Assembly (NCBI GenBank): GCA_043732185.1
Contig: JAYTHY010000019.1
Location: 1-41,324, forward strand
Direction of reading: 5' to 3'
Source: Fibrobacteria bacterium
Lineage (GTDB): Bacteria; Fibrobacterota; Fibrobacteria; UBA11236
DNA length: 41,324 nucleotides
Below, in pieces: positions 16,910 to 34,262 of the stretch. Position numbers and translations under genes: made by a program. The notes under the pieces were generated by a model. It was not told where the DNA came from, made no database searches, and worked only from the letters and a program-made list of their open reading frames with translations. How positions within the stretch are numbered: the first letter of the stretch is position 1; each line of letters opens with the position of its first letter.

Positions 16910-16924
16910 TTCATTGCCAAGGCT

Positions 16925-17497
16925 TTACCACACGCCCACATAGTCGGGATGCACCAGATTCCATTCCTTGGAATAGGTGTGAATCCGGTTCGTGGCCACC
17001 ATTGCCCCTTCTGAATTGCGAGTGAACAATTCGCCCCCCGCAAAACTCCACGCCAATATGCCCCCTTCCAGATTCTCGGATTTGATGCCTTGCCTGGCCA
17101 AGGTCTCGGCGTATTTTCCGCTGCGAAAGCCTATAGTGCAGTAAACGACGATCCGTTTGGCGGATGGAATTCCTTTTCGAAATTGTTGCGCAAATTGGAA
17201 GGTGGACAGGGCATGCGGTAACATGGAGATTACCTGTTCTTTTGGCTGCCGGATATCGATGAGAACCAAATCGGTATCGTCGATAATTTTCTTAAGCTCC
17301 GCTGCTTTTAGTACCGGTACGTGGATTTCCAGGGTGGCCTTGGCGTACTCCACGCGCAGGCGGGCTTCGATTTTTTCTTCGCGGGACAACCCTTGGGCTT
17401 GGCAATGAGTGCTGCCCATAAGTCCCATCAAGAGGAATGGCCAAGAAAACAGGGCAACTCGGAAAGTACCCATGATTTTAATTGCCATTCCAGCCAC
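16925..17497 (-). CDS. Exported rhodanese-domain protein
   Basis: LIDIRQPKE, VVYCTIGFRS and NLEGGILAW motifs; N-terminal signal. Confidence 0.85.
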   Translation of the reverse strand: MAGMAIKIMGTFRVALFSWPFLLMGLMGSTHCQAQGLSREEKIEARLRVEYAKATLEIHVPVLKAAELKKIIDDTDLVLIDIRQPKEQVISMLPHALSTFQFAQQFRKGIPSAKRIVVYCTIGFRSGKYAETLARQGIKSENLEGGILAWSFAGGELFTRNSEGAMVATNRIHTYSKEWNLVHPDYVGVW

Positions 17498-17505
17498 AGG
17501 CAGTC

Positions 17506-18690
17506 TTACGACTTGGCCGTGTCCGCCGGGGCTGCTACGGTGGGCGCCGGCTTGAGTGCTTCCTTGAAACCGATTTTTCCATCTTTGATTTGCATGATGG
17601 TTGCAGGCTTGATGGCATTGCGGTTTTCATCGAGGGAGATGGATCCGGTTACACCGTTGAAGATTTTGGTATCGGCCAAGGCCTGACGGATATTATCCGG
17701 GGTAGGGGCAGCCGCGCGCTTGATGGCATCGAATAGGAACATGGCGCCGTCATAGCCCAGTGCAGCCATAGCGTCGGGTGTTTCCCCAGGGTAAGTGGTT
17801 TTGAAGTTTGTGACGAATTGTTGCAGCAAGGGATTCGGGTCTTCTACAGCAAAATGTGTAGCGAAATAGCAATCGTTGAGGGAGACGCCGCCGATTTCCA
17901 GAAGCTTGGAGGAATCCCAGCCGTCTCCGCCAAACAGGGGAACGGTGATTCCGAGTTTGCGGGCCTGCAGGGCTATCAAGCCTACTTCGGTATAATATCC
18001 TGGAATAAATATCGCCGAGGGATTTTTGCTTTTTAACGACGTCAATTGAGCTGTGAAATCCTTGTCGCCTTGGCTATAGCTTTCTTCTGCCACCACCTTA
18101 CCGCCCAACTTCAAAAATCTTTTTTCGAAATACCCCTTAAGCCCAACAGAATAATCTGTTTTCACGTCGAAGAAAATCGCAACATCCTTGATCGCAAGAC
18201 TGCTGGCGGCGAAATCGGCAAGTACTTCACCTTGGAACACATCGGTAAAGCACACTCGGAAAATGCAATCGCCGACTTGGGTGACTTTAAAATTCACTGA
18301 TGAGGAAGAAAGCATGGGGATGCGACTGGCTTGGCATACTGGCGCGGCGGCCAAACTGTTGGAGGATGCGGATCCTCCCATGACGACTACCACCCTGTCC
18401 TTGTTGATCAATTTGGTGACCACGGTTTGAGCTTCTTCCGGCTTGCCTTGATCGTCTTCAAGTACAATGCGGATAGGCCGTCCGGCAATTCCGCCTGCTT
18501 TGTTTATTTCGGTCAGGGCCATTTTAATACCCTTGGTTTCGCTTTGCCCAAAGGTGGCGATAGAACCGGTTAAGGATGCGAACTGACCAATCACGATTTC
18601 TTCCGCCGCTGGAGCCGCGGCCTCTTTTTTCTGATTGCATCCGGTGAGAAATAGAGCCAACGCGGGTAGGATCCAAAATAAAATTGCCAC
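17506..18690 (-). CDS. ABC transporter substrate-binding lipoprotein, LivJ/LivK-like (orphan here)
   Basis: Lipobox LTGC; SLTGSIATFG, EDDQGKPEEA, FRVCFTD, DFTAQLT. Confidence 0.9.
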   Translation of the reverse strand: MAILFWILPALALFLTGCNQKKEAAAPAAEEIVIGQFASLTGSIATFGQSETKGIKMALTEINKAGGIAGRPIRIVLEDDQGKPEEAQTVVTKLINKDRVVVVMGGSASSNSLAAAPVCQASRIPMLSSSSVNFKVTQVGDCIFRVCFTDVFQGEVLADFAASSLAIKDVAIFFDVKTDYSVGLKGYFEKRFLKLGGKVVAEESYSQGDKDFTAQLTSLKSKNPSAIFIPGYYTEVGLIALQARKLGITVPLFGGDGWDSSKLLEIGGVSLNDCYFATHFAVEDPNPLLQQFVTNFKTTYPGETPDAMAALGYDGAMFLFDAIKRAAAPTPDNIRQALADTKIFNGVTGSISLDENRNAIKPATIMQIKDGKIGFKEALKPAPTVAAPADTAKS

Positions 18691-18779
18691 TGAAGCCTTT
18701 CTGGGTCGGTTGGTTTTGTGACCGATCCCGTTGCATAAACCGTCGCTGCCTAGGTGCTCCCCAGCCAGCGTAGTCCACG

Positions 18780-18848
18780 GCTTTTTATTTAATCCGCGGA
18801 CAACAGCAGTAAAATAGTTTGCCGCAGACCGAACCCGGAGGGATTTTT
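18780..18848. repeat. Direct repeat A, copy 1 (upstream of the SBP gene)
   Basis: 58/69 ungapped identity to 19791-19859 (counted by hand); perfect 22-nt core AACAGCAGTAAAATAGTTTGCC. Confidence 0.9.
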
Positions 18849-18875
18849 TTGAAATTGCGCCATCGAGGACTAGGA

Positions 18876-19781
18876 TTATTTGCCGAAGGGTGGGCTGCGT
18901 CCGGACAAATCGAATTCAGCACCATTTGGATTCCACCATCGCCACATCACTGTAGGATACAAGAGTCCGTAATCAGAATTAGGTCCGGGGCTGCCGGACT
19001 TGGCGCGATATGGAAGTGTAGTCATGGCATCACTCCATCTGGACACGCGCACCCAATCAAAGGACGTCTCGGCAGGAAGAAAGGTATTGTCCGTGATTGG
19101 CCAGTTTCCATCCCAACCACCCATTTGCGTGTACAAAATCAAGTATTGCGCCGTCAATTGGCCGATGCTGGCGGCATCCGCGTACTTGGCGCGCTGCACG
19201 CCGTCTATTTCCCACATGATGGAATCGGGTGTCCATACCACCGCGTAGTTATGGTAGGCGAGCGAGTAATCGAAGGTGCCGTCCCAATGGGTGGAACTTT
19301 GTTGATGGGTGGCGGAGCTATTGCCCCAGTGGTAGGTCATGTAGAGGCGCTGAGGAAACAAACCCAAGGTTTCAAAAATGTCGACTTCCGGCGGCCACCC
19401 GCCTGCATCCGACAAAGTCCAGAAGGCGGGCCAAATACCTTTGCCTTTCGGCATTTTTGCACTAGCCTCGATGCGGATTTTTCCGCCGTAATTATTAGGA
19501 TGGAACGCATGCTTATGCTGTGACTCGATGCCGCCGCTGGTATATGCATAGGTACCACTGGTTTGCACCTTTGTGGTAATGACGAACTTTCCGGACCGGA
19601 TGGAGACATTGGCCGGCAGAAATTGTGCATAGTCGCGGCCGTTATCGGATATGTTCCAATCCTTGGTACTGAGTGAATCGAAGTTGTCCTCGAATACAGT
19701 TTGCCACGCGGCGTGCGCTACGCCGATAGCCATGCAACACAGGTACAGGCAGAAATAAATCGGATAAAAAGCACCTCGCAT
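18876..19781 (-). CDS. Secreted GH16 glycoside hydrolase (laminarinase-like)
   Basis: Signal peptide; YTSG, GIWPAFW, catalytic EVDIFE, YAVVWTPD; C-terminal FDLSGR. Confidence 0.9.
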   Translation of the reverse strand: MRGAFYPIYFCLYLCCMAIGVAHAAWQTVFEDNFDSLSTKDWNISDNGRDYAQFLPANVSIRSGKFVITTKVQTSGTYAYTSGGIESQHKHAFHPNNYGGKIRIEASAKMPKGKGIWPAFWTLSDAGGWPPEVDIFETLGLFPQRLYMTYHWGNSSATHQQSSTHWDGTFDYSLAYHNYAVVWTPDSIMWEIDGVQRAKYADAASIGQLTAQYLILYTQMGGWDGNWPITDNTFLPAETSFDWVRVSRWSDAMTTLPYRAKSGSPGPNSDYGLLYPTVMWRWWNPNGAEFDLSGRSPPFGK

Positions 19782-19790
19782 AGCTTAACC

Positions 19791-19859
19791 GCTTTCCATT
19801 TAATCCGTCTAGAACAGCAGTAAAATAGTTTGCCACCGACCTAACCCTGAGGTATTTTT
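19791..19859. repeat. Direct repeat A, copy 2 (between GH16 and the dehydratase)
   Basis: See copy 1; offset 1011 nt. Confidence 0.9.
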
Positions 19860-19902
19860 AGTAAAATTGGAAACAATAGGAATTGGGTAGAAAAGGATCC
19901 TT

Positions 19903-21006
19903 ATGAAAATCAAGCGCATTTCAATATTCAAGGTCGAACTTCCCCTAGTGGAAGGGCAGTACAACTGGTCAGAAGGTAAAAGCGTCAGCGCCTTTGATTC
20001 TACTGTCGTCAAAATGGAAACGGACGAGGGCATTACCGGGTACGGAGAAATCTGTCCCTTAGGTCCCGTATACCTGCCCTCCTTTGCCGCCGGAGCTAGA
20101 GTGGGAATCGGGGAAGTGGCCCCGCATTTAATTGGCGAAGATCCCCTTCAAGTCGGCGCGATCAATCTCACCATGGACCGCGCCCTAAAAGGCCATGCCT
20201 ATGTGAAATCGGCTTTGGACGTAGCTTGCTGGGACATTTTGGGCCAAAAAGCCGGAGTGCCAGTTGCAGTATTGCTCGGTGGAAAATTCGGTGAATCCGT
20301 ACCCTTGTATCGCGCCATTTCCCAGGACACACCCGCCAACATGGCCGGCAAGGTCAAGGGGTACAAAGCGGAAGGCTACAAGAAATTCCAACTCAAAGTA
20401 GGTGGAAATCCGGACACGGATATAGAGCGCATTAAAATGGTCGCCCAGCAATTGGATGATACGGATACACTCGTAGCCGATGCCAATACCGGATGGTTGA
20501 TGCATGAAGCCCTGCGAGTGGTCGCCGGCGTGCAAAACATTAAAGTGTATATCGAGCAGCCCTGCTTATCCTATGCGGAATGCCTTTCCGTCCGTCAGCA
20601 TACGTCCTTACCTTTCGTTCTCGACGAATGCATGGATGATATCCACGGGATTATGAAAGGTGCTCAAGACAAGGCCATGGATGTGGTCAATATCAAGATC
20701 AGCAAGCTGGGCGGACTGACCAAGGCCAAGCAGGCCCGTGATCTATGCGTGTCCTTGGGGATAGGCATGACCATTGAGGATACCTGGGGCGGCGATATCG
20801 TAACAGCCGCCATTGCCCATCTCGCGCATAGCACGCCCTCACGGTTCATGTTTTCCAGTACCGACTTCAACAGCTATGTGACCAAGAGTATCGCTACCGG
20901 TGCTCCCAAGAGAATCGCAGGTCGAATGAGTGCCGGGGACAAACCTGGACTTGGCATTCAGCCCATTGTGGCTGCGCTTGGGGATGCTGTCGGCGTGTTC
21001 AGCTGA
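19903..21006 (+). CDS. cis-3-hydroxy-L-proline dehydratase (enolase superfamily)
   Basis: [50 protein letters not shown] and TDFNSY match the c3LHyp dehydratase group as I recall it; hydroxyproline gene context. Confidence 0.8.
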
Positions 21007-21103
21007 GACGCGGATATTGCGGCGGGGGGCGAAGCACCAATCCCCGCTAACTATTCTCATGTGTATTTAATATCGCCCGGAACCCATATGGAGGGCGTGT
21101 GTG

Positions 21104-22006
21104 TTAGGGAGGTTCAACGGATTTTTCAAATTGCACCGCCAAAATCTTTTGGTAGAACTTGTTCGTGGCAATCCAAATAAGCAGAATGAGTATGAATAGA
21201 GTGGCCGAATAATCGACTACCCGGTATTGGAATTCTTCAAAAAAACTTTTCCAAGGAAACGCTGCGTTTTCAAAATAGGCATGCAGCATTGTAGGTGGAG
21301 AAGGGAAAATTGGGTTTTGCCCAAAACTTCCAGCTGTGTAGTAAAAGCCTACGAAAATCAGAAAATAGGCGGCAACCAACACTAAGCGGAGTTCAAATTT
21401 CCTGCCTTGGTTATCGGTTTCCACCCGCGTTCGATATGGTTTTCTTTTGATCGTATGGATAATTCCGAAGAGTGAAATTCCGGAAACTAGGACAAGGAAA
21501 GAAATATTTCCGAGGGCCCTTTTCTGTGACAGCGCTTCCGAAAAATATCCAAATCCGTTAAGCGACAATGCAGTTAGTAAGATTGCGAATAGCGGTAATA
21601 GGGACCAGAGGGAAAGAAAACGAAAAGTGGAACGAGGCACCAAAGGGGCCCGTTGAATGGAATCTTTGGGAATCCGTATCCGAACCTTTTCTTCAATTTT
21701 TCCAAAATAGAGAGCAAGGACAATTAACAGCAATACAAAAACAGGAATGTGAACTGCGAATAGGAGCCAGTTAGACCCGATGCTTAACGCTAATACCAAT
21801 ACCAGTAAGGAAATTAAACAGGCCAGGCGAAGTGGTGCAAGGGGAGCTTTACGATGGGTGGCTATGAATTCAGGGTTGGAAAATACCCAGGCTGGATTTC
21901 GGGAAAGCGTTCGTTGCCTTTCAGCCTGAACCAACTTTGGACCTGCCACCATAAATGTGAGAATCATCTGCAAGCTATACAGGACCGCTTCTATATAGAG
22001 ATTCAT
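21104..22006 (-). CDS. Polytopic membrane protein, unknown function
   Basis: About 7 hydrophobic segments; ATGA-coupled to the GntR gene. Confidence 0.75.
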   Translation of the reverse strand: MNLYIEAVLYSLQMILTFMVAGPKLVQAERQRTLSRNPAWVFSNPEFIATHRKAPLAPLRLACLISLLVLVLALSIGSNWLLFAVHIPVFVLLLIVLALYFGKIEEKVRIRIPKDSIQRAPLVPRSTFRFLSLWSLLPLFAILLTALSLNGFGYFSEALSQKRALGNISFLVLVSGISLFGIIHTIKRKPYRTRVETDNQGRKFELRLVLVAAYFLIFVGFYYTAGSFGQNPIFPSPPTMLHAYFENAAFPWKSFFEEFQYRVVDYSATLFILILLIWIATNKFYQKILAVQFEKSVEPP

Positions 22007-22392
22007 TCGACTTCCTTTTGTTTATGAATTTTAAAAGTGCGGCGAAATATTTCTTGGAGATTGTCGGCAGAAAGTCCGCGGTTTTTCCAATAGGATAAGA
22101 GTTCTTGAATTTGTTCAGCCGCAGCCTTATCCATCGTTTCTTTTAGGTTTGGTTGGGCATTTGCATGGACGAAGGTTCCACGCCTGCCCGCAGTGTGGAT
22201 GATTCCGTCTTTGTCCAGTATTTGATAAGCCTTTGCCACGGTGGCGGGGTTCACTTCCAAATCCGAGGCCAATTGACGAATGGGCGGAAGCGGATCTCCA
22301 ATGGTTAACTCCCCACCAGAGATGGCCTTGCGTATTTGCAGAATAATTTGCTCGTAAACCGGAAGTAAGGAGCGGGCGTCGATTTCTATCAT
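22003..22392 (-). CDS. GntR family regulator, YtrA subfamily
   Basis: 129 aa; PVYEQI, GDPLPPIRQLA, VNPATVAKAY, GRRGTFV. Confidence 0.9.
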   Translation of the reverse strand: MIEIDARSLLPVYEQIILQIRKAISGGELTIGDPLPPIRQLASDLEVNPATVAKAYQILDKDGIIHTAGRRGTFVHANAQPNLKETMDKAAAEQIQELLSYWKNRGLSADNLQEIFRRTFKIHKQKEVE

Positions 22393-22434
22393 ATTGTACT
22401 AGTTCAATATAGTACAATACTTTTAAAAAGTCAA
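22392..22434 (-). promoter_or_regulatory. Promoter TTGACT-N17-TATATT overlapped by the palindromic operator TATTGTACTA-N8-TAGTACAATA
   Basis: -35 at 22434-22429, -10 at 22411-22406; perfect 10-bp inverted arms at 22392-22401 and 22410-22419, resembling YtrA-type boxes. Confidence 0.8.
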
Positions 22435-22437
22435 CTG

Positions 22438-22457
22438 TTTCTGCTGGCTGGCAGAAA
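22438..22457 (-). terminator. Possible terminator hairpin after the ALDH genes
   Basis: TTTCTGC-N6-GCAGAAA inverted repeat; weak U tract. Confidence 0.35.
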
Positions 22458-22478
22458 TAAGTCCTTAAAGCGAAGTTT

Positions 22479-24050
22479 TTACCACTGCCACTCTCCGTTG
22501 ACCATGCGCCAAATCGCGAGCGGATTCTGCATTTGCAATTCCACCGGTAAAAGTGCATCCGGCAAATCCTGATAACACATGGGTCGCGTAAACCTATAAA
22601 TGGCGTTAATCCCGACTGAGGTAAAATGTTCAAATGTGGACGCAGGAAAGGGTCCCCCGTGATGCATTGAGGGGCAAACCTCCACTCCGGTGGGAAACCC
22701 ATTTACGATAAGCCGTCCCACCTTTTGTCGCAAAGTCGGGAAAAGTCCGGAAAAGCGAAGTAAATCCCCCTCCGTTCCATGAATAGCGCCAGCAAGGTGT
22801 CCTTTTAAGGACTCGGCTACTTGTTCCATTTCCCTTGCGTTTTCGCAAAGCACCAGCAAGCAGGCGGGCCCAAATACCTCTTCACCCAATTCCGGTTTTT
22901 GGATTATATCTAATGCCCGCATCTGCAATAGTGCGGGCTGCGCATCCGTATCTTGATGTGCTCCAGTACTCTTGCTCTTGAAAAGAAGTTCGACCTCTGG
23001 GTGCTTTAGTTTGGACTGTAAGGTGGCTTCGTAACCCGATTTAATGGATGCATTCACCATGGTTCCAACCGGGCTTTCCCGTAACTTTTCAAGGATAAGT
23101 GCAAAAAAGCTTTCTGTTTCCGGGTTTCTTAAAGCGATGACTAGTCCCGGGCAAGTGCAAAATTGGCCCGCGTACATGGTCAGAGATTGCACCAGGCCGG
23201 TCGCCAAATCTCCTCGGTTGGCGGCTACGGTTTCTGGTAAAAAAAAGATGGGGTTGGACGAACCCATTTCCGCATAGACAGGGATCGGGTCCGGCCTCTG
23301 AGCGGCGACGTCGAAAAGGGCGCGGCCACCTCGGTAGGATCCGGTAAATCCCACGGCGCGGATATTGGAATTGCGAACCAGCGCTGTGCCAACGGAGTGC
23401 GAGACCCCGTGAAGCAAGGAAAAAACACCCTCTGGCATACCTGTTTTTTGCGCAGCTTCAAGTATGGCTTCGGCATAAATATCCGAGGTCCCGGGATGGC
23501 CAGGATGGGCCTTGACAACTACTGGACAACCGGAGGCCAGGGCAGAAGCCGTATCGCCACCGGCAGTGGAATACGCTTGGGGAAAGTTTGAAGCGCCGAA
23601 AACCGCCACGGGCCCGATAGGAATTTGATATTGTCGGATATCCGGTTTGGGAATGGGCTTGCGTTCAGGTTGGGCTGTATCAATGCTGGCCCGTACCCAG
23701 GAACCCTCTCGTAGCATTGCCGCGAACTGACGCAATAGGTTTACGGTTCTGTCCCGCTCACTCAAGATCCTGGCGGGCAGGTAGGCGGTTTCTTGCGACA
23801 AACGCATCAGCAAGACTGCCTCGCGTGATAGAACCGATTCGGAGATGGCCTCCAAGAATTCGGCGCGACGGTGGCCGGGGAGTAGTCTGTACGTTTTGAA
23901 AGCTTCTGCAGCCTTTAGACAGGCCGATGCTATCTCACCGGCCGCTGCTTCTTTAAATTGACCGGGAAGCGCATCACCCGTTGTCGGATCAAGCGCTTGG
24001 AACCTAGCGTTTTCTGAATATTTTTCCGAAATAGGAACGCTTTCTGCTAC
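22479..24050 (-). CDS. Alpha-ketoglutaric semialdehyde dehydrogenase-like ALDH, copy 2 (no canonical start codon)
   Basis: FGASNFP, GFTGS, EMGSSNP, GQFCTCPG, EEVFGP. The frame is open and homologous to copy 1 upstream of the ORF-track start (RFQALDPTTGDALPGQF), and stays open back to the TAG of copy 1. Confidence 0.8.
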   Translation of the reverse strand, partial: VAESVPISEKYSENARFQALDPTTGDALPGQFKEAAAGEIASACLKAAEAFKTYRLLPGHRRAEFLEAISESVLSREAVLLMRLSQETAYLPARILSERDRTVNLLRQFAAMLREGSWVRASIDTAQPERKPIPKPDIRQYQIPIGPVAVFGASNFPQAYSTAGGDTASALASGCPVVVKAHPGHPGTSDIYAEAILEAAQKTGMPEGVFSLLHGVSHSVGTALVRNSNIRAVGFTGSYRGGRALFDVAAQRPDPIPVYAEMGSSNPIFFLPETVAANRGDLATGLVQSLTMYAGQFCTCPGLVIALRNPETESFFALILEKLRESPVGTMVNASIKSGYEATLQSKLKHPEVELLFKSKSTGAHQDTDAQPALLQMRALDIIQKPELGEEVFGPACLLVLCENAREMEQVAESLKGHLAGAIHGTEGDLLRFSGLFPTLRQKVGRLIVNGFPTGVEVCPSMHHGGPFPASTFEHFTSVGINAIYRFTRPMCYQDLPDALLPVELQMQNPLAIWRMVNGEWQW

Positions 24051-25592
24051 CTATCGCTGCCATTCTCCGTTAATCATCCGCCATATCGCCAAAGGATTTT
24101 GCATTTTCAATTCCTGAGGCAACAGTGATTCCGGCAGGTTTTGGTAACAAGCTGGCCGCGTGAACCGGTAAATTGCCGTTGTGCCCACCGAAGTGAAATT
24201 GGGGAAAGTAGTGGAAGGGAAAGGTCCGCCATGATGCATGGAGGGACAAACCTCAACACCGGTTGGAAAACCATTTATGATTAGTCTACCGACCTTTTGT
24301 TCCAAGATGGAGAATAAGGCGCGATGCTCCGAGAGATCCCCGTCCGTGCCGTGCAGTGTGCCTGTGAGCTGGCCCGTCAGTGATTCCGCCAAGGCCGACA
24401 TTTCGGCTTCGTTTTCGCAAACCACCAGGACAGCGGCGGGTCCAAAAATTTCCTCGCCAATTTCAGGATGCTTTAGAAAGTCCTTTCCCGTGGTGCAAAG
24501 CCATGCTGGCGGCGCTTCCGAATCCGGATGCGCACCCTTGACCTGGCTTAGGTATAAGGTCTGTACGTATGGATGACTGGTTCGTTCTTTGAGCGCTCCG
24601 GCATAGCCTTGTTTGATGGAAGGATGCACCATGGTACCGGTGGCAACTTTTTTCAATTGTGCCGTCACCGCTTGGGCAAAGGCATCGGTAGCCGGGCCTT
24701 TAAGGGCCACCACCATGCCGGGGCAGGTGCAGTTTTGACCCACTCCCATGGTAAGCGAAGCTGCGAAATTTTCCGCGATGGTCTCTCCTCTGCTTTGCAA
24801 GGCTTCGGGCAATAGAAACACCGGATTGGTGGAACTCATTTCTGCATAGACGGGGATGGGTTCGGGTCTGGCATTGGCCATATCGAACAACAACCGGCCG
24901 CCTTTATAAGAACCGGTGAAACCCACCGCTTTGACATGCGGATTTTTTACCAAGGCTTCACCGATGGCATGGGAATTCGCATGGATGAGGGAAAATACAC
25001 CGTCCGGCATGCCGGTTTTTTTAGCGGCCTCCAGGATGGCTTCTGCGTAAATTTCGGCGGTACCGGGATGGGCTTTGTGGGCTTTTACAATTACCGGACA
25101 ACCTGCAGCCAAGGCCGACGCAGTATCGCCGCCCGCCGTAGAAAAGGCCTGGGGGAAATTCGAAGCCCCGAATACCACCACGGGGCCGATTGGAATTTGA
25201 TATTGGCGCAGATCGGGTTTGGGAATGGGCTTGCGGTCCGGAAGGGCCGTATCAATGCTGGCCCGTACCCAGGAACCTTCTCGCAGTAAAGCTGCGAACT
25301 GACGCAATTGGCTAACGGTACGGTCCCGCTCACCTAATATCCTTGCGGGTGGGTAGGCGGTTTCTTGACCCAAACGCGTCAACAAAGCAGTCTCACGGGC
25401 TACAACGGCATCGGCGATGGCCTCTAGGAATTCGGCGCGACGTTTGCCGGGCAGCATTCGGTAAGCACGAAAAGCTTCCGCGGCCTTTTGACAAGTCGTT
25501 TCGATTTGCTCCGTAGTCGCAGCCTGAAATTGACCTGGAAGCAGCGCACCAGTAGTCGGATCCACAGCTTGAAACATTGTTGTGTTGTTCAT
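24051..25592 (-). CDS. Alpha-ketoglutaric semialdehyde dehydrogenase-like ALDH, copy 1
   Basis: FGASNFP, EMSSTNP, GQNCTCPG, HHGGPFP; coupled to the deaminase gene; hydroxyproline pathway context. Confidence 0.88.
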   Translation of the reverse strand: MNNTTMFQAVDPTTGALLPGQFQAATTEQIETTCQKAAEAFRAYRMLPGKRRAEFLEAIADAVVARETALLTRLGQETAYPPARILGERDRTVSQLRQFAALLREGSWVRASIDTALPDRKPIPKPDLRQYQIPIGPVVVFGASNFPQAFSTAGGDTASALAAGCPVIVKAHKAHPGTAEIYAEAILEAAKKTGMPDGVFSLIHANSHAIGEALVKNPHVKAVGFTGSYKGGRLLFDMANARPEPIPVYAEMSSTNPVFLLPEALQSRGETIAENFAASLTMGVGQNCTCPGMVVALKGPATDAFAQAVTAQLKKVATGTMVHPSIKQGYAGALKERTSHPYVQTLYLSQVKGAHPDSEAPPAWLCTTGKDFLKHPEIGEEIFGPAAVLVVCENEAEMSALAESLTGQLTGTLHGTDGDLSEHRALFSILEQKVGRLIINGFPTGVEVCPSMHHGGPFPSTTFPNFTSVGTTAIYRFTRPACYQNLPESLLPQELKMQNPLAIWRMINGEWQR

Positions 25593-26512
25593 TTCGATGC
25601 GGCCTTCGCCATGGTGAGAGAGGGCCGGGTGGCAATGGCTTGTCGCACGATACTCAAAATTCTTTCGCGTTCTTCGCCTTCCAATTTAAGGCGGGGAAGC
25701 CGAACATTTTCCGAACCGTAGCCGCATTCTTTGGCAGCCAGTTTGATGTATTGCACCAGCTTGATGGAAGTATCGAGATGCAGGCAAGGCGTGTACCAGC
25801 GGTAAACGTCCAAAGCTTCTTTATATCGTCCAGCCGTGGCCAAATCCCACAGTAATTTATTCTCGGCAGGAAAGGCGGATACCAAACCGGACACCCAACC
25901 CGTGGCGCCCAGAACCAGGGATTCCAAAGCTAAGTCATCTACCCCGCAAAAGATTTGCATGCGATTTCCCAGGGCATTGAAAATATCCGTGATGCGGCGG
26001 GGATTGTCGGACGCTTCTTTGACGCACACGATGTTCGGCTCACTGGCCAAAACTTTGAGGCAGTCTACGGTAACGTCGACATTATAACTGGGGGGATTGT
26101 TATAGGCCATGATTGGGAGTGAAGTGGACCGGGCGATGGTTTGAAAGTGGTGGATGATTTCACGCGTATCCGCCTTGTAAGCCATAGAGGGCAGCACCAT
26201 AAGGCCGTCAACACCAGCAGCTTGTGCATCTTTGACAAACTGTACGCCACGGACCGTGGTCATTTCCGAAACGCCCGTCAACACTGGGACGCGTCCTTTG
26301 ATATGCTTGACTGCCCCAGTCAGGATAGCCTGCTTTTCCGAGGCTTCAAGGGAATTGTTTTCACCGCATGTGCCCAGCAAAATCATGCCGTGCACGCCGG
26401 CATCAAGCATAATGTCGATGTGTTCCAAAGTTTTACCCATGTTGATGGAAAGGTCATCATTGAAGTGGGTTAAGGCTGCTGGGTAAACGCCCCGCCATTG
26501 AGTAGATGACAT
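25589..26512 (-). CDS. lhpC: DHDPS family, probable delta1-pyrroline-4-hydroxy-2-carboxylate deaminase
   Basis: WRGVYPA, LGTCGE, YNNPPSY, VKEAS, CGVDDLALES, LVQYIKL; AAGGAG RBS before MSSTQW. Confidence 0.82.
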   Translation of the reverse strand: MSSTQWRGVYPAALTHFNDDLSINMGKTLEHIDIMLDAGVHGMILLGTCGENNSLEASEKQAILTGAVKHIKGRVPVLTGVSEMTTVRGVQFVKDAQAAGVDGLMVLPSMAYKADTREIIHHFQTIARSTSLPIMAYNNPPSYNVDVTVDCLKVLASEPNIVCVKEASDNPRRITDIFNALGNRMQIFCGVDDLALESLVLGATGWVSGLVSAFPAENKLLWDLATAGRYKEALDVYRWYTPCLHLDTSIKLVQYIKLAAKECGYGSENVRLPRLKLEGEERERILSIVRQAIATRPSLTMAKAASK

Positions 26513-26655
26513 ACAATTCTCCTTCTGCCGGATAACCGGGATGTTTGGGAAAGAAAATCTACTCAACTTCAGGAAGACTGTCCGCTCTAGTCGGTAAGTT
26601 TTGAAGTCCATGCGCAGTAAATTGTGCTAGTTTTCCTAGGAATCCAGGGGGTAGC

Positions 26656-27630
26656 ATGTCGGCAAGCAAGGTGGATGGATTTTTTCCTGAGAAACTCGAA
26701 GTGATCGATTCGCATACTGGTGCCGAACCCACGCGGATGGTGGTCTCAGGATGGCCCCAACCTATTGGACCGGATATGGAAAGCCGACGCACCTACATGC
26801 GTGAAAACCAGGACGCCTTGCGTCGGGCCAGTATTTGCGAACCCCGTGGACATGATGCCATCGTCGGGGCCATGCTCACTCCGGCCGTTCACCCCGGCTC
26901 AGTGGCCGGTGTGATTTTCTTCAACGATGTCGGGTACCTGGGGATGTGCGGACATGGTTTGATCGGAACCGTAGCCACTCTCAAATTTATGGGGAAGATT
27001 TCTGAAGGCTCTTTGCGGGTGGACACGCCCGTCGGTACCGTGGCCGCGACCCTGGATGCCGAAGGCTTTGTTTCGATTGAAAATATTGCCAGCTATCTGT
27101 ACCGGGAAAAAGTGACGGTGGATGTGCCCCAAGTGGGTCAGGCGGTGGGGGATATCGCCTATTCCGGCAACTGGTTTTTCATGGTGGAAGCCACTCCCAT
27201 AGAACCTCGCATGGAAAACCTGGATGCACTTATGTCATACAGTAAAAAAATTCGCCAAGCGTTGGAATCGGCTGGAATCACTGGACCATTGGGTGAAAAA
27301 ATCGATCACATTGAAATCTACGGCCAAGCCCAGCATGCCCAAGCCCAAAGCAAAAACTTTGTGCTCTGTCCTGGCAATGCCTATGACCGTTCCCCTTGCG
27401 GCACCGGTACCAGCGCTAAAATGGCATCGTTACATAAAAAGGGAAAATTGGCTTTAGGCGAAAAATGGATTCAGGAAAGCATCACCGGTTCCATTTTTGA
27501 AGGACATCTCTTGAAAAGAGGCCAAGACCTGATTCCCGTGATTCGATCCACTGCGCATGTGGTGGCTACGTCTACCCTTTACTTTTCGCCTTCTGATCCT
27601 TTCCGAAAGGGCATACCGAATGCGGTATGA
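26656..27630 (+). CDS. lhpA: 4-hydroxyproline 2-epimerase (proline racemase family)
   Basis: IDSHTGAEPTR, EPRG, catalytic MCGH and DRSPCGTGTSA. Confidence 0.88.
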   Translation: MSASKVDGFFPEKLEVIDSHTGAEPTRMVVSGWPQPIGPDMESRRTYMRENQDALRRASICEPRGHDAIVGAMLTPAVHPGSVAGVIFFNDVGYLGMCGHGLIGTVATLKFMGKISEGSLRVDTPVGTVAATLDAEGFVSIENIASYLYREKVTVDVPQVGQAVGDIAYSGNWFFMVEATPIEPRMENLDALMSYSKKIRQALESAGITGPLGEKIDHIEIYGQAQHAQAQSKNFVLCPGNAYDRSPCGTGTSAKMASLHKKGKLALGEKWIQESITGSIFEGHLLKRGQDLIPVIRSTAHVVATSTLYFSPSDPFRKGIPNAV

Positions 27631-28732
27631 AAGCGATATCCTCATCATCGGTGGGGGAATCGTAGGGGCTGCGTGTGCGTGGACCTTACAGCAAGCGGGC
27701 CAAAAGGTCATCGTGCTGGAAGCGAAGCATCCCGGGACCGGCGCAACCGGGGCTTGCATGGGCCATATCGTAACCATGGATGATAGCGAAGCGCAAATGC
27801 AGCTGACTGCCTATTCCCGCAGTGAATGGGAAAAACTGGCGCCTTCACTTCCGCCGGATTGTGAAGATGAACTGGCCGGAACATTGTGGGTAGCCGCGGA
27901 CGATGAAGAAATGGATGCAGTGTTACGCAAGGCCAAATATTACGGCGAGCACGGTGTGGAAACGGAAGTTCTCGATGCCAGGGCCTTGGGCCGAATGGAA
28001 CCCAATCTCAGGCCGGGACTTACTGGAGGCTTGCGAGTGCCCGGCGATCGGGTGGTATACGCCACCAATTGTACGAATTGGATGTTGCGGCAAGTGGATG
28101 TGCGTCCCAACTGTAAGGTGATTGCTCTGGAATCAGGTGGTGCCCGCGACAGCGACGGAAACATTTTCAAAGCGCGAGCCGTGGTGCTGGCTTGTGGGGC
28201 GGAATCGGTGAATCTGTTGTCGGAGCTTCCGATTGAACCACGCAAGGGGCATCTGTGCATCACTTCCCGATATCCCGGTTTTTGCCGCCACCAAATCGTA
28301 GAGCTCGGATACTTGAAATCAGCCCATCAAATGTCCCAAGAATCCGTGGCCTTTAATTTACAACCGCGACCCAATGGACAAATGCTGTTGGGCTCCTCAC
28401 GGGAATTCGCCGGATGGGATAATTCCATCAATCCAAAAGTTTTGTCAAAGATGATTGCGCGCGCATGCGAATACATGCCGAGCATGGCCGCATTACAAGT
28501 GCTGCGCACATGGGTGGGTTTCCGGCCTGCCACTCGCGACAAATTGCCTCTGGTGGGTGCGTGGCCCGATCGGGAAGGTCTTTACATTGCCGCCGGCCAT
28601 GAAGGTCTGGGAATCACCACCAGCATGGGTACGGCCCGGTTATTGGCCGCAGAAATTCTTGGCTTGACACCTCCCTTTGATCCCAAACCCTACCGGGCAG
28701 GACGGACGTTTGCACAGGAAGTCCATGCCTGA
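27620..28732 (+). CDS. lhpB: D-hydroxyproline dehydrogenase beta subunit (DAO-family FAD oxidoreductase)
   Basis: IIGGGIVG, GATGACMGH, PRKGHL, ELGYL, GHEGLGITT; start at MRYES. Confidence 0.82.
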   Translation: MRYESDILIIGGGIVGAACAWTLQQAGQKVIVLEAKHPGTGATGACMGHIVTMDDSEAQMQLTAYSRSEWEKLAPSLPPDCEDELAGTLWVAADDEEMDAVLRKAKYYGEHGVETEVLDARALGRMEPNLRPGLTGGLRVPGDRVVYATNCTNWMLRQVDVRPNCKVIALESGGARDSDGNIFKARAVVLACGAESVNLLSELPIEPRKGHLCITSRYPGFCRHQIVELGYLKSAHQMSQESVAFNLQPRPNGQMLLGSSREFAGWDNSINPKVLSKMIARACEYMPSMAALQVLRTWVGFRPATRDKLPLVGAWPDREGLYIAAGHEGLGITTSMGTARLLAAEILGLTPPFDPKPYRAGRTFAQEVHA

Positions 28733-28967
28733 TATAAGCCTAAAGATCAATGGACTCGCTATCACAGTTCCGGAAAAGACTTCCGTGGCTGTAGCTATTT
28801 ACAAAAGTGGTGCGAAAGTTTTTCGTTCCTCCATCACCGGACAAGCCCGCGGGCCGGTATGCGGCATGGGAATTTGTTACGAATGTTGTGTTACCGTAGA
28901 TGGGTCGCCCTATATTCGCTCTTGTATGACTTTATGCCGAGAAGGAATGGAAGTGACGACAACATGA
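28725..28967 (+). CDS. D-hydroxyproline dehydrogenase gamma subunit ([2Fe-2S])
   Basis: CGMGICYEC...SCMT; overlaps both neighbouring genes. Confidence 0.82.
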   Translation: MPDISLKINGLAITVPEKTSVAVAIYKSGAKVFRSSITGQARGPVCGMGICYECCVTVDGSPYIRSCMTLCREGMEVTTT

Positions 28968-30193
28968 GAATCGTGGTGGTAGGGGCGGGGCCTGCCGGTT
29001 TGGCTGCGGCTGTTACGGCGGCGGAAAATGGCGCAGACGTTTGCCTGCTGGATGAAAATCCGCAACCGGGTGGACAAATTTGGAGACAAGGAATCAAGTC
29101 TGCTATACCTAAAGCGGCACAGCAATGGTTCCGTCGATTACAAGCACAGAAAATTGAATCCCATTTTGGGATGACTGTTGTCGGCGCAGAACCGGGAGTT
29201 GTGACGGCACTGACTGCCGGGGATGGAACGCGGAAATTTTCCTATGACTCGCTCATTTTGGCTACCGGAGCACGCGAGCTTTTTTTACCGTTTCCGGGTT
29301 GGACACTTCCCAATGTGATGGGCTGCGGAGGTGCACAGGCCTTTCTGAAAGCCGGTTGGCCGGTGAAAGGGCTGCGTCTTGTTGTGGCCGGTTCAGGACC
29401 ACTTTTATTGGCGGTGGCTTCGGCTTTTAAGGACAAGGGAGCGATCGTTGTCGGCATAGTTGAACAGGCCAATACCGGTTCTCTAATCCGTTTTGGAGCA
29501 AGCTTACTCCAGCATCCGGAAAAATTAGGGGATGGCATGCGGTATGGCTGGAAATGTTTTCCAACCATGATGAAATCCGGAACGTGGATAAGTCGCGCGC
29601 GCGGAGGAGAACATTTGCAATCGGTTATGGCCACCAACGGGCATCGCGAATGGGAATGGGAATGCGATGTGCTGGCCTGCGGTTTTGGGCTCATCCCCAA
29701 TACCGAACTGGCTGAATCGTTGGGATGTATTTTGGAAGCTGGCCGAGTCAAAGTGGATGCCGAGCAGCGAACCAGCCAGTCAAATATCTATTCGGTTGGC
29801 GAGAGCACGGGTATTGGCGGCGAGAGCGTGGCACTTCTGGAAGGGGAGATCGCCTCCCTGTCCATTTTAAAATCTGCCAACTTGCCAAGTAAAATTCACG
29901 CACGCGGGCGCTGGAATGGATTCCAACGAGACTTGGAAAATTGCTTCCGGTTGCGTCCGGAAGTTCTCGGATTAGCGGAATCGGATACCGTAGTTTGCCG
30001 CTGTGAAGATGTCACTTTCGGCAGTCTAAAGTCTTTGCCGAATCAACGCACTGCTAAGCTGTACACGCGTTGCGGCATGGGTCCCTGCCAGGGCCGCGTC
30101 TGCGGGCCTGCGTGCCGGGCCATATTCGGTTGGGAACTAAACAAACCCCGTTGGCCATTGGTGCCTGTGGAAATGGGCGCCTTGCTTAGCTAG
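28964..30193 (+). CDS. D-hydroxyproline dehydrogenase alpha subunit
   Basis: VVGAGPAG, GGQIWR, ATGARE..LPFPGWTLP, CRCEDV, RCGMGPCQGRVC. Confidence 0.82.
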   Translation: MRIVVVGAGPAGLAAAVTAAENGADVCLLDENPQPGGQIWRQGIKSAIPKAAQQWFRRLQAQKIESHFGMTVVGAEPGVVTALTAGDGTRKFSYDSLILATGARELFLPFPGWTLPNVMGCGGAQAFLKAGWPVKGLRLVVAGSGPLLLAVASAFKDKGAIVVGIVEQANTGSLIRFGASLLQHPEKLGDGMRYGWKCFPTMMKSGTWISRARGGEHLQSVMATNGHREWEWECDVLACGFGLIPNTELAESLGCILEAGRVKVDAEQRTSQSNIYSVGESTGIGGESVALLEGEIASLSILKSANLPSKIHARGRWNGFQRDLENCFRLRPEVLGLAESDTVVCRCEDVTFGSLKSLPNQRTAKLYTRCGMGPCQGRVCGPACRAIFGWELNKPRWPLVPVEMGALLS

Positions 30194-30198
30194 TTTTC
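30125..30198. repeat. Direct repeat B, copy 1 (3' end of the alpha-subunit gene)
   Basis: 73/74 identical to 34185-34258; the single mismatch is T30151/C34211. Confidence 0.97.
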
Positions 30199-30414
30199 GG
30201 GGATTATAAAAAAAATGTCTTTTTTTGTTTTGGCAAAATGGCAATCCTATTTATTCATCAATTATAAGCCAAAATGACTGCGAGTAACCACGCAAAATGG
30301 TCCTTGTATAGGGCAGGATTTGAAAGTAGATTCCCAATTGTGAAATCTGCTCAAGCCAACTTTTTCCATGAAAGCAGATTATTTGTGGTAATCCTGAAAA
30401 AAATGAGGTAGGTT

Positions 30415-32606
30415 ATGAATATGCGAATGATAAAAATGTGTGGGGGGGGGTACTTCTCCTTGCTAGTGCTCTAAATCTTCAGGCCGCCACGACTAATAGT
30501 TCCGTACCGGAAATAATTTCAACCAGTCGAAGCCGGTACCCACTGACTCATGGAAATGAGGTCGTAGAGGTCCAAAAAGTGTGGAACCCGGTAACCAAAT
30601 CCATTCAAATTGTATCCAACTCTGCTCAAGTTCAAAGTGCTCAAGATCTGGTGCGCTTGGAAGATGAAGAAAAAACTGCTGCAAGAAAGAAAAATGGGGC
30701 GCTTTCTCCAGACTTGTTGGACAGGTTTAATGCAATGGCAGATTCAGATTCTGTGGAGGTCTGGATTCACCCAAATGTTCCATCCATACCCATGATGGAT
30801 AAAACTCTTCATACTGTGTCGGAACTTAAAGAACATGCCCGCATGAACTCGATACAATTGCCGTATTTTTCCATGGAAACCATTTTGCGGCGTCATGGAA
30901 TTGAGCCGCTTTTAAATTCACAATCACAAACTTTAGGACGAAGCAGGGACAGACATTTTCTGAAAATCTCAAAGCGCAATTTGGCACTGCTTAGGTATGA
31001 TCCAGATGTTGTGACGATTGAATCAAAAACCGACTTTGCTCCCCTTACGCAACCCTTTTCATCCCTTGCAGCATCAGCTTACAATCCCGCCAATGGCATA
31101 CCTCTTGCCTGGAGGGGTCAAGGAGTCAATGCCGCGACCTTTGAGATTGGGCTGGCCTGGCATTTACAGTGGTCGAATGGACCGCAAATGGGTGAGTTTT
31201 TGTCTGGAGGGGATTTGGTTACCTGTGCCAATTTGAATACGGCAAATCTTTTGAACACTCACACTCTGATTGATAATAATGGCGGGTGGGTAAATGGAGT
31301 TTGGAAACAAGGTGCTACTCTATCTACATGGAATAACTGGGAACATTCTCAACAAACTTTTCAATGCTTGAGATATGCCGCTCCAAGTGCAAATTTATTT
31401 CACCTTTCTGATGGAGATGGAGTTCCATACTATAGAGTGGATTATATTAAGACCTTACAAATTCAAACTATCAGCCTAAGCTATGCTCGAAATGCCCCCG
31501 CTCCAGGATGTCCCCCCACTTCACAATGGCTAGCGTTACCGCCTAGCACCAAAGAATTCATGGAAATTGACCAACAAGCGTTGGAGTACCCCTTTACACT
31601 GTTTTGTTCCCCTGCAGGCAACCAAGGGCACATATTTGAAGTCAATTGGCAGAATTACAACGGACTCAGTGTAGGAAATGTAAGGCATACGAACCTCAAC
31701 CATTATGAGTTTTCACCTGGCAATGGCAATGTAGATGTTTGCAAAGGAACCGGGGAGGGGACCATGTCCAGAAATCCGCGTGCCATCTACGCTGGGCCTG
31801 ATATTATTCCCGGTGGATACCCCTATTCCTACAACCCCGGTGACCGCGAAATGCCGAGTATTGTTGCGCCGGGTACTATGCCGGATGGACAATCTATGAG
31901 TGATCCTTGCGTTCCACAGCCAATAACAATGGGAACCAGTTATAGCGCGCCCACTTTAAGTGGTATTGCAGCGTGTGTGCTTAGTGTAAAAAATGCATAC
32001 GCCCAAGATTATGTAATGAAGAATTGGCCTGAAAAGGTAAGAGCAGCCCTCTTGGTTACGGCGCAAAATGTTTCTGGGGCGGATTGGGACTCTCGGGTAG
32101 ATGGCTGGGATGGAGCCGGTGTGGTCTAAGGTTCAGAAGCTGTCAATTTTGCGCTTAATTTCCAAACCGTTTTTCCGGGAGATGTCGGGGTTCCCATTGG
32201 GCTTTCATATAGAACGGTATATGGGGACGCAGCTTCTTTTAATGGAACGGACGTTTATAATATCAAGTTATCAAGTACCAAAAAATTGGGATACCACCTA
32301 AGAGTAGTACTGGTTTGGGACAGCAATCCGCTCACGACCTACAGCTCGGCTGGTGTGAGGATGGATGACAATCGACTGAGCGATCTAGACTTGACTGTTG
32401 CAAGCGGCACAGGAACTCCATCCATTGGCACCCATGTTTCCGCGAGCTGGGACAATAGCATTGAAATTGTTGATATCCCTTACTCACAATTGACTGCGTC
32501 GGGAAACTATACCGCTAGTGTGAGAAAGCTTTTAAACCGGGTTCCTACCGGTGCAGTTTTTTACTATTGCATTGCCTGGACCTGGGTAAAAGACCATGCG
32601 AATTAA
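30415..32606 (+). pseudogene. Secreted S8 subtilase-like protease, frameshifted at a G9 tract and with one in-frame TAA
   Basis: AGNQG, IVAPG, GTSYSAP, WPEKVRAALL, GAG; C-terminal LRVVLVWD...SDLDL..SWDNSIEIV domain in the same frame after TAA 32127-32129. The RBS-linked ATG at 30415 is out of frame by one G. Confidence 0.8.
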
Positions 32607-32625
32607 ATTCAGGGGGGAAAATATT

Positions 32626-33285
32626 ATGGAAAATAGGATAGGAAATAGTGCGATCGTCGTATTAGTTCTTGTAATCACATCTGTATCTGCGCAAAGGTAC
32701 TCGAGAGTCTTGGACTGCTTGGGTACACAAGTTTCAAAAGATGCTGACAGCACTGTATACTCCGGCATGCGGCCTTGGATAGACACCGTCCAGGATACTG
32801 CTCACTTCCTAGGATTTGTGGAAGGCTGTGACCCCCCTACATGCAATCCAATTTTTTCAAATTGCAATCCAAATCCTGGATGCAAAATTTATTGGATTGA
32901 AGCTGCTATCGATGCTGATTTAGTGAACGACAGAATTAGTACGCTTGAAAGACATAAAATATACGATACTTGGGCCGCGGACTTGAATGCAAGTTTCAAA
33001 TTAAAAGTGCTATTTCCTTCATTCATTGAAGATAGCGTACCAGTTACGGTTGATTCCTCTACGCATTATGCCATTTGGCCATTTCCCTGGCTTACGAAAG
33101 GGGATATTTTAGCTTTGAGCAAAAAGTGCTATATCAATAAAATTGAATTTCCCTACCAACCCGTAGTTAACCGCGGTAGTCACTCCATCCCCATTTATCC
33201 AAAGGGAGGGAAAGCCTTCAATGGTAAGGGCCAGAAAATGGGCGATGCAAAATCGGGCGTTTATTATTTAAGACCTAAGCCATGA
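32626..33285 (+). CDS. Secreted Cys-rich protein, paralog 1
   Basis: Signal peptide (VSA-Q), CDPPTCNPIFSNCNPNPGC, C-terminal FNGKGQK...GVYYL. Alternative start at 32596. Confidence 0.8.
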   Translation: MENRIGNSAIVVLVLVITSVSAQRYSRVLDCLGTQVSKDADSTVYSGMRPWIDTVQDTAHFLGFVEGCDPPTCNPIFSNCNPNPGCKIYWIEAAIDADLVNDRISTLERHKIYDTWAADLNASFKLKVLFPSFIEDSVPVTVDSSTHYAIWPFPWLTKGDILALSKKCYINKIEFPYQPVVNRGSHSIPIYPKGGKAFNGKGQKMGDAKSGVYYLRPKP

Positions 33286-34077
33286 AATTTGTCTCGATAT
33301 CATTTAGTGTGATTCTTATTTCTTATTGCAGCCTAACCGAAATTATCAAGTCCGTTGGGTAGTAGACGTTGCATTAAGAAGTTCAATAGGAAAATAATGA
33401 AAAATGGAAATGGCATTAGGGTCAGCCTGACACTTCTGCTCGCGACAAACTTGGCAATCTCCCAACAGCACTTACGAGTAGTTGACTGTCTAGGCACTCA
33501 AGTTTTAAAAGATGCTGACAGCACTGTTTATTCAGACATAAAATATTGGATGGATACTGCCCAAGATACCGCGCACTTTCTTGGACTGTGGGGTGGATGT
33601 AATCCCCCGTTGACTTGCAACCCGATTTTTCTTAAAAATCCGATTTATATAAATTGCCACCCTGATTCGGAGTGTACATTTAGTTGGATTTTCGCTAGAA
33701 TAGGCGCTTATTTAGTAAACGATAAAATTAGCACATCCGAAAGAAATAAAATATACGACACATTGGCCGCGGACTTGAATGCAAGTTTCAATTTAAAAGA
33801 GCTGCATCCCACCTTCATAGAAGATAGTGTGCCTGTTACAGTTGACTCTTCAAACCACTATTTCCTTGGGCAATATCCCTGGCTTACGAAAGGGGATATT
33901 TTGGCTTTGAGCAAAAAGTGCTATATCAATAAAATTGGATTTCCTATGCAACCCGTAGTTAACCGCGGTAGTCACCCCATAATAATTAATCCAAAGGGAG
34001 GGAAAGCCTTTAATGGCAAGGGCCAGAAAATGGGCGAGGCAAAATCTGGCGTTTATTATTTAAAACCTAAACCTTAA
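33085..34077 (+). repeat. Highly similar 3' ends of the two paralogs (33085-33285 vs 33877-34077)
   Basis: Ungapped alignment at offset 792. Confidence 0.9.
33397..34077 (+). CDS. Secreted Cys-rich protein, paralog 2
   Basis: Aligns with paralog 1 (DCLGTQV.KDADSTVYS, AADLNASF, PWLTKGDILALSKKCYINKI). Confidence 0.8.
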   Translation: MKNGNGIRVSLTLLLATNLAISQQHLRVVDCLGTQVLKDADSTVYSDIKYWMDTAQDTAHFLGLWGGCNPPLTCNPIFLKNPIYINCHPDSECTFSWIFARIGAYLVNDKISTSERNKIYDTLAADLNASFNLKELHPTFIEDSVPVTVDSSNHYFLGQYPWLTKGDILALSKKCYINKIGFPMQPVVNRGSHPIIINPKGGKAFNGKGQKMGEAKSGVYYLKPKP

Positions 34078-34184
34078 AATGTCTCCAAATATTAATCTCG
34101 TCGATTTTCGTACCGTAAGTCGACATCAAGGCATTATTCAAGTCTAAATTGAATTATCGGCAATACCTTCCCTCTTTTGCAATG

Positions 34185-34258
34185 TTCGGTTGGGAACTAA
34201 ACAAACCCCGCTGGCCATTGGTGCCTGTGGAAATGGGCGCCTTGCTTAGCTAGTTTTC
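34185..34258. repeat. Direct repeat B, copy 2 (directly upstream of rarA)
   Basis: See copy 1; ends 4 nt before the rarA ATG. Confidence 0.97.
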
Positions 34259-34262
34259 CGGC

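Follow-up and report, generated by a model that had tools for sequence, protein, structure and literature searches.

Gene insertion with long target duplication and cargo other than restriction-modification genes in an uncultured sediment Fibrobacteria bacterium

Insertion with long target duplication is a mode of bacterial genome change whose founding paper is said to be that of Nobusato, Uchiyama, Ohashi and Kobayashi, reportedly published in 2000 (Gene 259:99). In the later survey by Furuta, Abe and Kobayashi (2010, Nucleic Acids Research (NAR) 38:2428; PMC2853133), it is recognised by an insert of less than 20 kb and a duplication of more than 30 bp, the length of which varies; other mobile elements are absent, and in a relative the repeat aligns a single time. 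Repeats that overlap gene 3' ends are described there, most cases come from naturally competent species, and the mechanism is stated to be unknown, with DNA breakage by restriction enzymes being suspected. In an Escherichia coli study, a selection for recombinants with one-sided homology yielded single crossovers of a circular molecule in 56 of 60 cases, and the homologous segment was duplicated over 109-950 bp in 14 sequenced recombinants (PLoS One 2011;6:e28876, PMC3240628). For orphan immunity arrays of the Vibrio cholerae type VI secretion system (T6SS) and for orphaned 3' regions of Rhs genes, a further report proposes homology-facilitated illegitimate recombination (Sci Rep 2017;7:45133, PMC5361080). 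Here, we describe two cassettes on contig C19 (JAYTHY010000019.1; "the window", the whole stretch of 41,324 nucleotides that was analysed), which belongs to a 139-contig, 4.46-Mb metagenome-assembled genome (G000) of an uncultured sediment Fibrobacteria bacterium. Cassette 1 carries a GH16 glycoside hydrolase gene and cassette 2 an S8-family peptidase gene with two paralogous genes, each between two direct repeat copies. A preliminary description, made from the letters of the window, had put them forward as a candidate system; the pattern was, however, already published in 2000 and 2010, and the cassettes are the known "insertion with long target duplication" with a cargo other than restriction-modification genes, not a new kind of system.

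The clearest case is cassette 2. For its comparison with relatives, the congeneric genomes G002 and G008 were used as sources of empty sites, within a family set of 32 genomes including G000, and none of the conclusions depends on the unpublished genome G011; gene families were assigned with Pfam for the 37 open reading frames (ORFs) of the window. The locus comprises the following features, where GC stands for guanine plus cytosine:

28859..30193, plus strand, resident FAD-dependent oxidoreductase gene (Pyr_redox_2, Pfam E 1.4e-30)
30125..30198, unstranded, repeat 2 copy L, made up of the 23 final codons of the oxidoreductase gene, its TAG stop and the next 5 nt (74 nt, 1 mismatch to copy R)
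30199..34178, plus strand, cargo 2 island, 3,980 bp, 43% GC (genome 49%), missing at this site in G002 and G008
30438..32606, plus strand, S8-family peptidase gene, broken by a single in-frame TAA at 32127-32129 (first ORF 30438-32129; Pfam and homolog alignment)
32596..33285, plus strand, orphan exported protein, paralog 1, 229 amino acids (aa), no Pfam family
33355..34077, plus strand, orphan exported protein, paralog 2, 240 aa, tandem duplicate of paralog 1 (DNA 76-78% identical)
34185..34258, unstranded, repeat 2 copy R, a displaced and non-functional duplicate of the oxidoreductase 3' end, separated by 4 nt from the start codon of rarA (repeat comparison)
34263..36497, plus strand, resident RarA/MgsA AAA+ ATPase gene, 744 aa, with a C-terminal extension of ~300 aa without Pfam family (MgsA_C, Pfam E 3e-61)

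On the plus strand, the order is thus copy L, S8 gene with paralogs, copy R and rarA, all genes being co-oriented. Repeat 2 extends over 30119-30211 and 34179-34271 (93 nt, 91% identical) around the sharp 74-nt core listed above. Both in G002 (94% identical) and in G008 (81-89%), the oxidoreductase gene is followed directly by rarA, and the 80-nt stretch occurs once; at the level of sequence comparison, these two congeneric empty sites prove cassette 2 to be an insertion, and they also set its polarity. The cargo 2 island was not found at the DNA level in the 31 other family genomes, and a metagenome scan with the S8 protein returned 17 pattern matches and no relatives. Support for the linkage of the island to its flanks comes from the original assembly and from the equal depth of flank, island and flank (10.8, 11.1 and 10.1), as k=31 contigs from run X1 end within the 47-nt identical part of repeat 2 and give no link between copy L and the island. 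Contigs from four public runs over 17000-36900, in which rare variants are dropped, contain neither a direct oxidoreductase-rarA join nor a circle junction.

Cassette 1 lies on the minus strand of the same contig, in the order copy B, GH16, copy A and the gene for a solute-binding protein (SBP), again with all genes co-oriented:

17506..18690, minus strand, resident gene for a periplasmic SBP (Peripla_BP_6, Pfam E 1.2e-64)
18777..18848, unstranded, repeat 1 copy A, intergenic, 86 nt ahead of the SBP start (72 nt, 83% identity with copy B)
18876..19781, minus strand, GH16 glycoside hydrolase gene, cargo 1, 301 aa with a hydrophobic N-terminus (Glyco_hydro_16, Pfam E 6e-21; translation)
19788..19859, unstranded, repeat 1 copy B, upstream of two genes, GH16 (6 nt from its start) and, on the opposite strand, the enolase-superfamily gene (43 nt) (repeat comparison)
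19903..21006, plus strand, resident gene for an enolase-superfamily enzyme (MR_MLE, Pfam), divergent from SBP

The insert amounts to 939 bp, and the DNA between the copies of repeat 1 is scarcely more than the GH16 ORF. The repeat can be extended by BLAST to 81 nt at 82% identity. With E-values against the whole genome of 1.5e-15 for repeat 1 and 3e-32 for repeat 2, neither repeat pair is a chance match, and no further copy of either repeat or either cargo was found by BLAST in the 4.46-Mb genome. The whole structure of cassette 1 is also present in G002 at 90% identity, GH16 and the enolase-superfamily ortholog each being confined to G000 and G002 among the 32 family genomes. Copies A and B of G000 each group with their own G002 counterpart; hence, the event that gave rise to cassette 1 is older than the split of the two species. 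An uninterrupted SBP/enolase-superfamily intergenic site was found neither in the 32 family genomes nor in 80 metagenome loci; in none of these 80 loci does SBP or GH16 stand beside the enolase-superfamily gene (63-69% identical), and the G008 contig carrying the SBP gene stops inside it. A single contig from an independent assembly of run X1 covers 17000-30181, including all of cassette 1, and shows no difference from it.

No integrase or transposase family was detected among the 37 window ORFs, serine recombinase families being covered via general Pfam scans of these ORFs, and there is no tRNA gene in the window. The tyrosine recombinase family PF00589 has seven matches in the genome, none of them on contig C19, and terminal inverted repeats were not found at the cargo ends. 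With regard to integron cassettes, the cargo ends have no inverted-repeat structure and contig C19 has no tyrosine recombinase (no attC covariance model was used).

The pattern recurs elsewhere in the genome. A self-comparison for direct-repeat pairs of 40-300 bp, 0.3-20 kb apart, yielded 27 pairs in 19 loci versus 2 inverted pairs under the same filter; 14 of the 19 loci were inspected, those outside the inspection being C36, two C46 loci, C112 and C113 (243-295 bp, 77-84%). Three of the inspected loci have an empty site in a relative:

C26, 35800-35994 / 39669-39863, 195-bp repeat, hybrid histidine kinase and GSDH-type dehydrogenase genes as cargo, empty site in G002 and G008
C128, 10127-10423 / 22067-22363, 297-bp repeat, 11.6 kb of cargo with an aminotransferase, two AMP-ligases, MMPL and LolA-like genes, empty site in G002
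C13, 11192-11252 / 11738-11798, 61-bp repeat, 485 bp of cargo at 33% GC without an ORF, empty site in G008

Together with cassette 2, there are thus four insertions with an empty site that holds exactly one repeat copy, and two more loci share the same layout. At C15, a 153-bp repeat and a toxin-antitoxin cargo lie at the end of a FeeM-like gene; in G002, this place contains two nested 3' fragments (447 and 153 bp) with the stop codon as common right boundary, the extra 447-bp fragment standing ahead of the same cargo with a GH43 gene before it, and in G008 the site is occupied by different genes. These nested fragments mark this gene end as a nested hot spot. The repeats range from 48 to 297 bp in the genome, in addition to the 447-bp fragment in G002, and are unrelated in sequence and unique in the genome. 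At cassette 2, C15, C26 and C128, the upstream gene contributes its 3' end to the duplicated block; at C13, the block is situated slightly within the 3' end of the preceding ORF. Of 63 ORFs from 11 candidate loci and their surroundings, not one matched an integrase or transposase family at E <= 1e-5, and recognisable restriction-modification genes were absent from every case checked.

Some of the remaining loci are less clear. For C63 and C118, the comparison was not clean; C49 and C66 yielded no clear picture; C101 shows the same structure in G002, while the G008 contigs break there; and C89, with a fragment of an MFS gene beyond an SDR-TetR pair, looks like an older, degraded case. C10 and C35 were rejected as cases, as they belong to a dispersed repeat family. 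This repeat of ~80-120 bp is found at the ends of short contigs (C10, 1-188 and 6308-6429; C35, 63-140 and 4433-4510; C76, 11121-11203) upstream of unrelated genes, where it probably breaks the assembly, and is a phenomenon distinct from the flanking duplications.

Much of what the preliminary description reported is borne out by these data: both repeat pairs are real and unrelated to each other, the order of copy, co-oriented cargo, copy and resident gene is correct for both cassettes on the Pfam gene map, and the cassettes lack a recombinase gene of their own, with cassette 1 counted as an insertion by its layout. The empty-site alleles that it suggested looking for in relatives exist for cassette 2, further cases were found in the genome (three with a verified empty site and one nested hot spot), and the different ages it proposed for the two events agree with the fact that cassette 1 with both repeat copies is common to G002 and cassette 2 is not. 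Its functional reading, a host promoter copied in front of genes for secreted proteins, did not stand. Repeat 2 consists of the 3'-terminal coding sequence of the gene before it, and the proposed promoter motif TAnnTTT is at chance frequency in the window (96 matches versus 104 +/- 9 in shuffles). It occurs in both copies of repeat 2 as TAGTTTT, of which TAG is the oxidoreductase stop codon in copy L, and has an exact match in copy B of repeat 1 (19853-19859) and none in copy A. The only sigma-70-like matches in repeat 1, among them TTGCCA-17-TATTTT at 19830-19858 in copy B, are on the plus strand and face the enolase-superfamily gene and not GH16 or SBP, with the proviso that the promoters of this phylum may differ. 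On these grounds, we see no evidence that the duplicated blocks act as promoters. Likewise, the cargo is not preferentially secreted across the loci, the other cases carrying a histidine kinase with a dehydrogenase, an enzyme cluster, a toxin-antitoxin pair or no ORF; the secreted status of cargo proteins was judged by eye from N-terminal hydrophobic segments, without a signal-peptide predictor.

As to the mechanism, we consider host homologous recombination, not a dedicated enzyme, to be the most likely route and give it about an even chance, in the form of a single-crossover integration of circularised DNA that contains a short piece of the target. The incoming DNA would consist of the cargo adjoining this piece, typically a gene end and the bases after it. 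It would become circular, and one crossover within the common piece (Campbell-type) would leave the piece on both sides of the cargo, so that the left copy would keep the upstream gene intact and the right copy would keep the bases before the downstream gene. In a linear variant with the same product, homology would anchor one end, and an illegitimate join a little upstream would close the other. The unrelated sequences and variable length (48-297 bp) of the repeats fit recombination that depends on the length of homology, and not one site-specific enzyme. Ku was not found in the genome, whose completeness score is 100%, which argues against capture by end-joining.

The relationships between the repeat copies bear on the same question. 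The two C26 copies share 88.7% identity, which is no more than that between copies from different species (89-92%), and a quartet count of 1 : 1 : 3 gives no pairing of the two. At C128, where the cargo and both repeat copies are present in G008 as well, the left copies of G000 and G008 agree at four sites at which both right copies and the empty-site copy of G002 differ from them. At cassette 2, the three differences in the 80-nt alignment are all at third codon positions. Small as these numbers are, they are compatible with one copy having arrived with the cargo, and one copy often looks imported. Furthermore, the C128 flanks (7501-23779, compared with locus L040 of G002) are 97-100% identical at a distance from the insertion and 81-94% in the ~1.5 kb to each side of it, and G008 is 96-99% identical across flank and cargo. 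It thus appears that the whole C128 allele was exchanged between lineages through homologous recombination in its flanks; read in this way, the mosaic shows that whole alleles of such kind spread also by ordinary flanking recombination, and that homologous exchange is active in the lineage.

Several points weigh against integration by a single crossover. The model needs an earlier molecule in which the cargo already adjoined the target piece, and neither such a donor arrangement nor a circle or an excision product was seen in assembled contigs, from which rare variants are dropped. At cassette 2, nothing shows either copy to be imported: the copies are mutual closest relatives, with one informative lineage-specific base in common. 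Private changes over three loci (18 in left copies, 10 in right copies) are only suggestive. A donor tract beside the left copy of C26 was considered and rejected, the raised divergence there being common to all three lineages. For cassette 1, we infer the insertion from its layout alone. The ComEC protein found in the genome is near-universal, and so a weak indicator of competence.

A further suggestion concerns the inserted block itself, which may be a recombinase-free mobile unit that is looped out by RecA as a circle with one repeat, transferred, and returned to the empty site of a relative. This is possible rather than probable; in its favour, pieces of the cassette 2 island show 0-1 differences in run contigs whose flanking genes differ by 1-6%. 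If true, the "virus-like cycle", which has been proposed only for restriction-modification systems, would be a general, cargo-independent route of cassette exchange in environmental bacteria.

Integration in a gene 3' end with a restoring copy is classical for site-specific elements, and bounded elements without an integrase of their own are known, i.e., cis-mobilizable elements (CIMEs) in streptococci and mobilizable genomic islands in Vibrio, which use the attachment (att) site of a resident integrase-bearing element. The repeats might accordingly be attL and attR of tyrosine-recombinase elements that supply a replacement gene 3' end, with the integrase lost or located elsewhere, an explanation we consider unlikely. 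Besides the classical preference for 3' ends, it can draw on the seven tyrosine recombinase matches in the genome, one of which lies ~3.6 kb past the right-hand repeat at C101, and on the nested C15 fragments, whose single right boundary is as tandem accretion at an att site would give. Site-specific recombination is indeed one class of flanking direct repeats in the 2010 survey (PMC2853133). However, the at least five unrelated repeat sequences would need as many specificities, the cargos contain no integrase and contig C19 none of the seven recombinase matches, the repeats occur nowhere else in the genome, no tRNA is involved, and the longer duplications (195-447 bp) are of unusual size for an att identity block. 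Neither an adjacent integrase nor an att site in common with an integrase-bearing element was found. For individual cases, especially C101 with its nearby integrase, att-site elements are possible.

The idea of the preliminary description, a true target-site duplication by a trans-acting machine, would imply staggered cuts 40-300 nt apart followed by ligation and gap filling, independent of sequence. Sharp boundaries, unrelated repeats and recurrence within one genome would suit such a machine, as would the near-identical copies of cassette 2 with their common lineage-specific base, and the survey (PMC2853133) leaves the mechanism open. We nevertheless attach little probability to it: no enzyme emerged as a candidate, fresh duplicates should be sister sequences but those at C26 and C128 are not, duplication length varies about ten-fold, the lack of a detected Ku tells against it as well, and a simple recombination route with experimental precedent gives the same product.

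It is very improbable that a tandem duplication came first and that homologous recombination with a diverged allele then replaced its inner part. This alternative way to the same product is in print for rRNA operons, according to Lim, Furuta and Kobayashi 2012 (PMC3457768), and the recombination mosaics around C128 would be in line with it; it demands, however, that each event combine two rare steps and that the cargo be present beforehand at the same place in a donor allele, and the cassette 2 cargo was found neither in the other family genomes nor in the metagenome scan. That the repeats are artefacts of a 139-contig assembly, in which the X1 contigs break within repeat 2, has a negligible probability, being excluded for cassette 1 by the independent contig and by its presence in G002 and unlikely for cassette 2 with its even depth, since the copies are set apart by substitutions of a kind that does not arise from graph artefacts, and the C128 cargo with both copies is found in G008.

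Beyond the question of insertion, the cassettes and their surroundings show some features of their own. In the empty-site genomes, the rarA start codon lies 9 nt past the oxidoreductase stop, which suggests co-transcription of the two genes, now interrupted by the island. The S8 gene has its own 240-nt upstream region. Its two ORFs (563 and 106 aa) are collinear with a 711-aa homolog from a Fibrobacteria genome (48% and 53% identity), in which a serine occupies the position of the in-frame TAA; in addition, a run of nine G at 30442-30450 puts an upstream ATG (30415) and a normal signal peptide out of frame, so that the peptidase gene seems to be inactivated twice over. In run X3, from another study, one contig has four extra bases (GGGT) in this run, which would restore the S8 frame, and the variation may be phase variation by slippage. 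The same run yields a contig that skips 792 nt (window 33111-33904) and has a single merged orphan copy instead of two tandem paralogs, making the tandem pair polymorphic in nature. Paralog 1 has only two relatives outside the window in a search of 5.8 billion clusters.

The G002 copy of the GH16 gene (L147, G002:C404:11796-12695) contains an internal TAG and is 87% identical at the protein level, with the enolase-superfamily protein beside it being reported as 100% identical; the GH16 cargo seems to be decaying in that genome. Between the two cassettes, Pfam annotation gives one further group of genes:

21104-28732, a 300-aa ORF without family match, a GntR regulator, two aldehyde dehydrogenases, a DHDPS-family enzyme, a proline racemase-family enzyme and a DAO oxidase

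The enzymes are reminiscent of a hydroxyproline-type catabolic cluster. In contigs of runs X4 and X5, position 21006 is joined to 22476, and the 300-aa ORF and the GntR regulator are missing; this segment has a lower GC content (0.447) and is a small indel polymorphism for which the repeat scan gave no flanking repeats.

Long target duplications have so far been tied in print to restriction-modification genes and to the breaks they make. Four verified insertions and two loci of the same layout, with neither restriction-modification genes nor a recombinase, point to ordinary host recombination as a process that may add any gene beside an intact resident. This would help to explain how small "islets" build up at gene ends in bacteria without obvious mobile elements, and it offers a simple signature for metagenome-assembled genomes, namely a gene 3' fragment that is repeated a few kilobases downstream.

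In comparison with known systems, the cassettes have the flanking direct duplication of the target in common with insertion sequences and transposons; these, however, make duplications of 2-14 bp and have terminal inverted repeats and a transposase, whereas the duplications here measure 72-74 bp and neither of the other features is present. The integrase-less att-bounded elements likewise have direct repeats at a gene 3' end and no integrase, but each repeat here is unique in the genome. As proposed for the T6SS and Rhs arrays (PMC5361080), DNA anchored in a conserved upstream gene would push older material downstream and leave serial remnants such as the 447- and 153-bp fragments at C15. Those arrays are polymorphic toxin loci with partial gene displacement, while the anchors in the present genome are metabolic or housekeeping genes of which a short 3' fragment is displaced. 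The single-crossover products of E. coli conjugation (PMC3240628) resemble the cassettes in that the insert is flanked by a direct duplication without any site-specific recombinase; they arose, however, from a laboratory plasmid construct under selection, whereas here we infer a circular intermediate and the origin of the DNA. The closest likeness is to insertion with long target duplication. By the definition in the survey of 2010, both cassettes are of fitting size (duplications of 72 and 74 bp, inserts of 939 and 3,980 bp), and both lack mobility genes and have a repeat present in two copies only; contiguous flanks with a single repeat copy in a relative were found for cassette 2 only. A restriction-modification cargo is present in neither, this having been a screening choice of the paper and not a mechanistic one. 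While the published screens required restriction and modification genes, the cargo in this genome comprises a peptidase, a GH16 enzyme, a kinase, an enzyme cluster and a toxin-antitoxin pair, placed, as in those screens, in inserts of less than 20 kb between variable, unrelated repeats of more than 30 bp that are single in a relative, without mobility genes and often at a gene 3' end.

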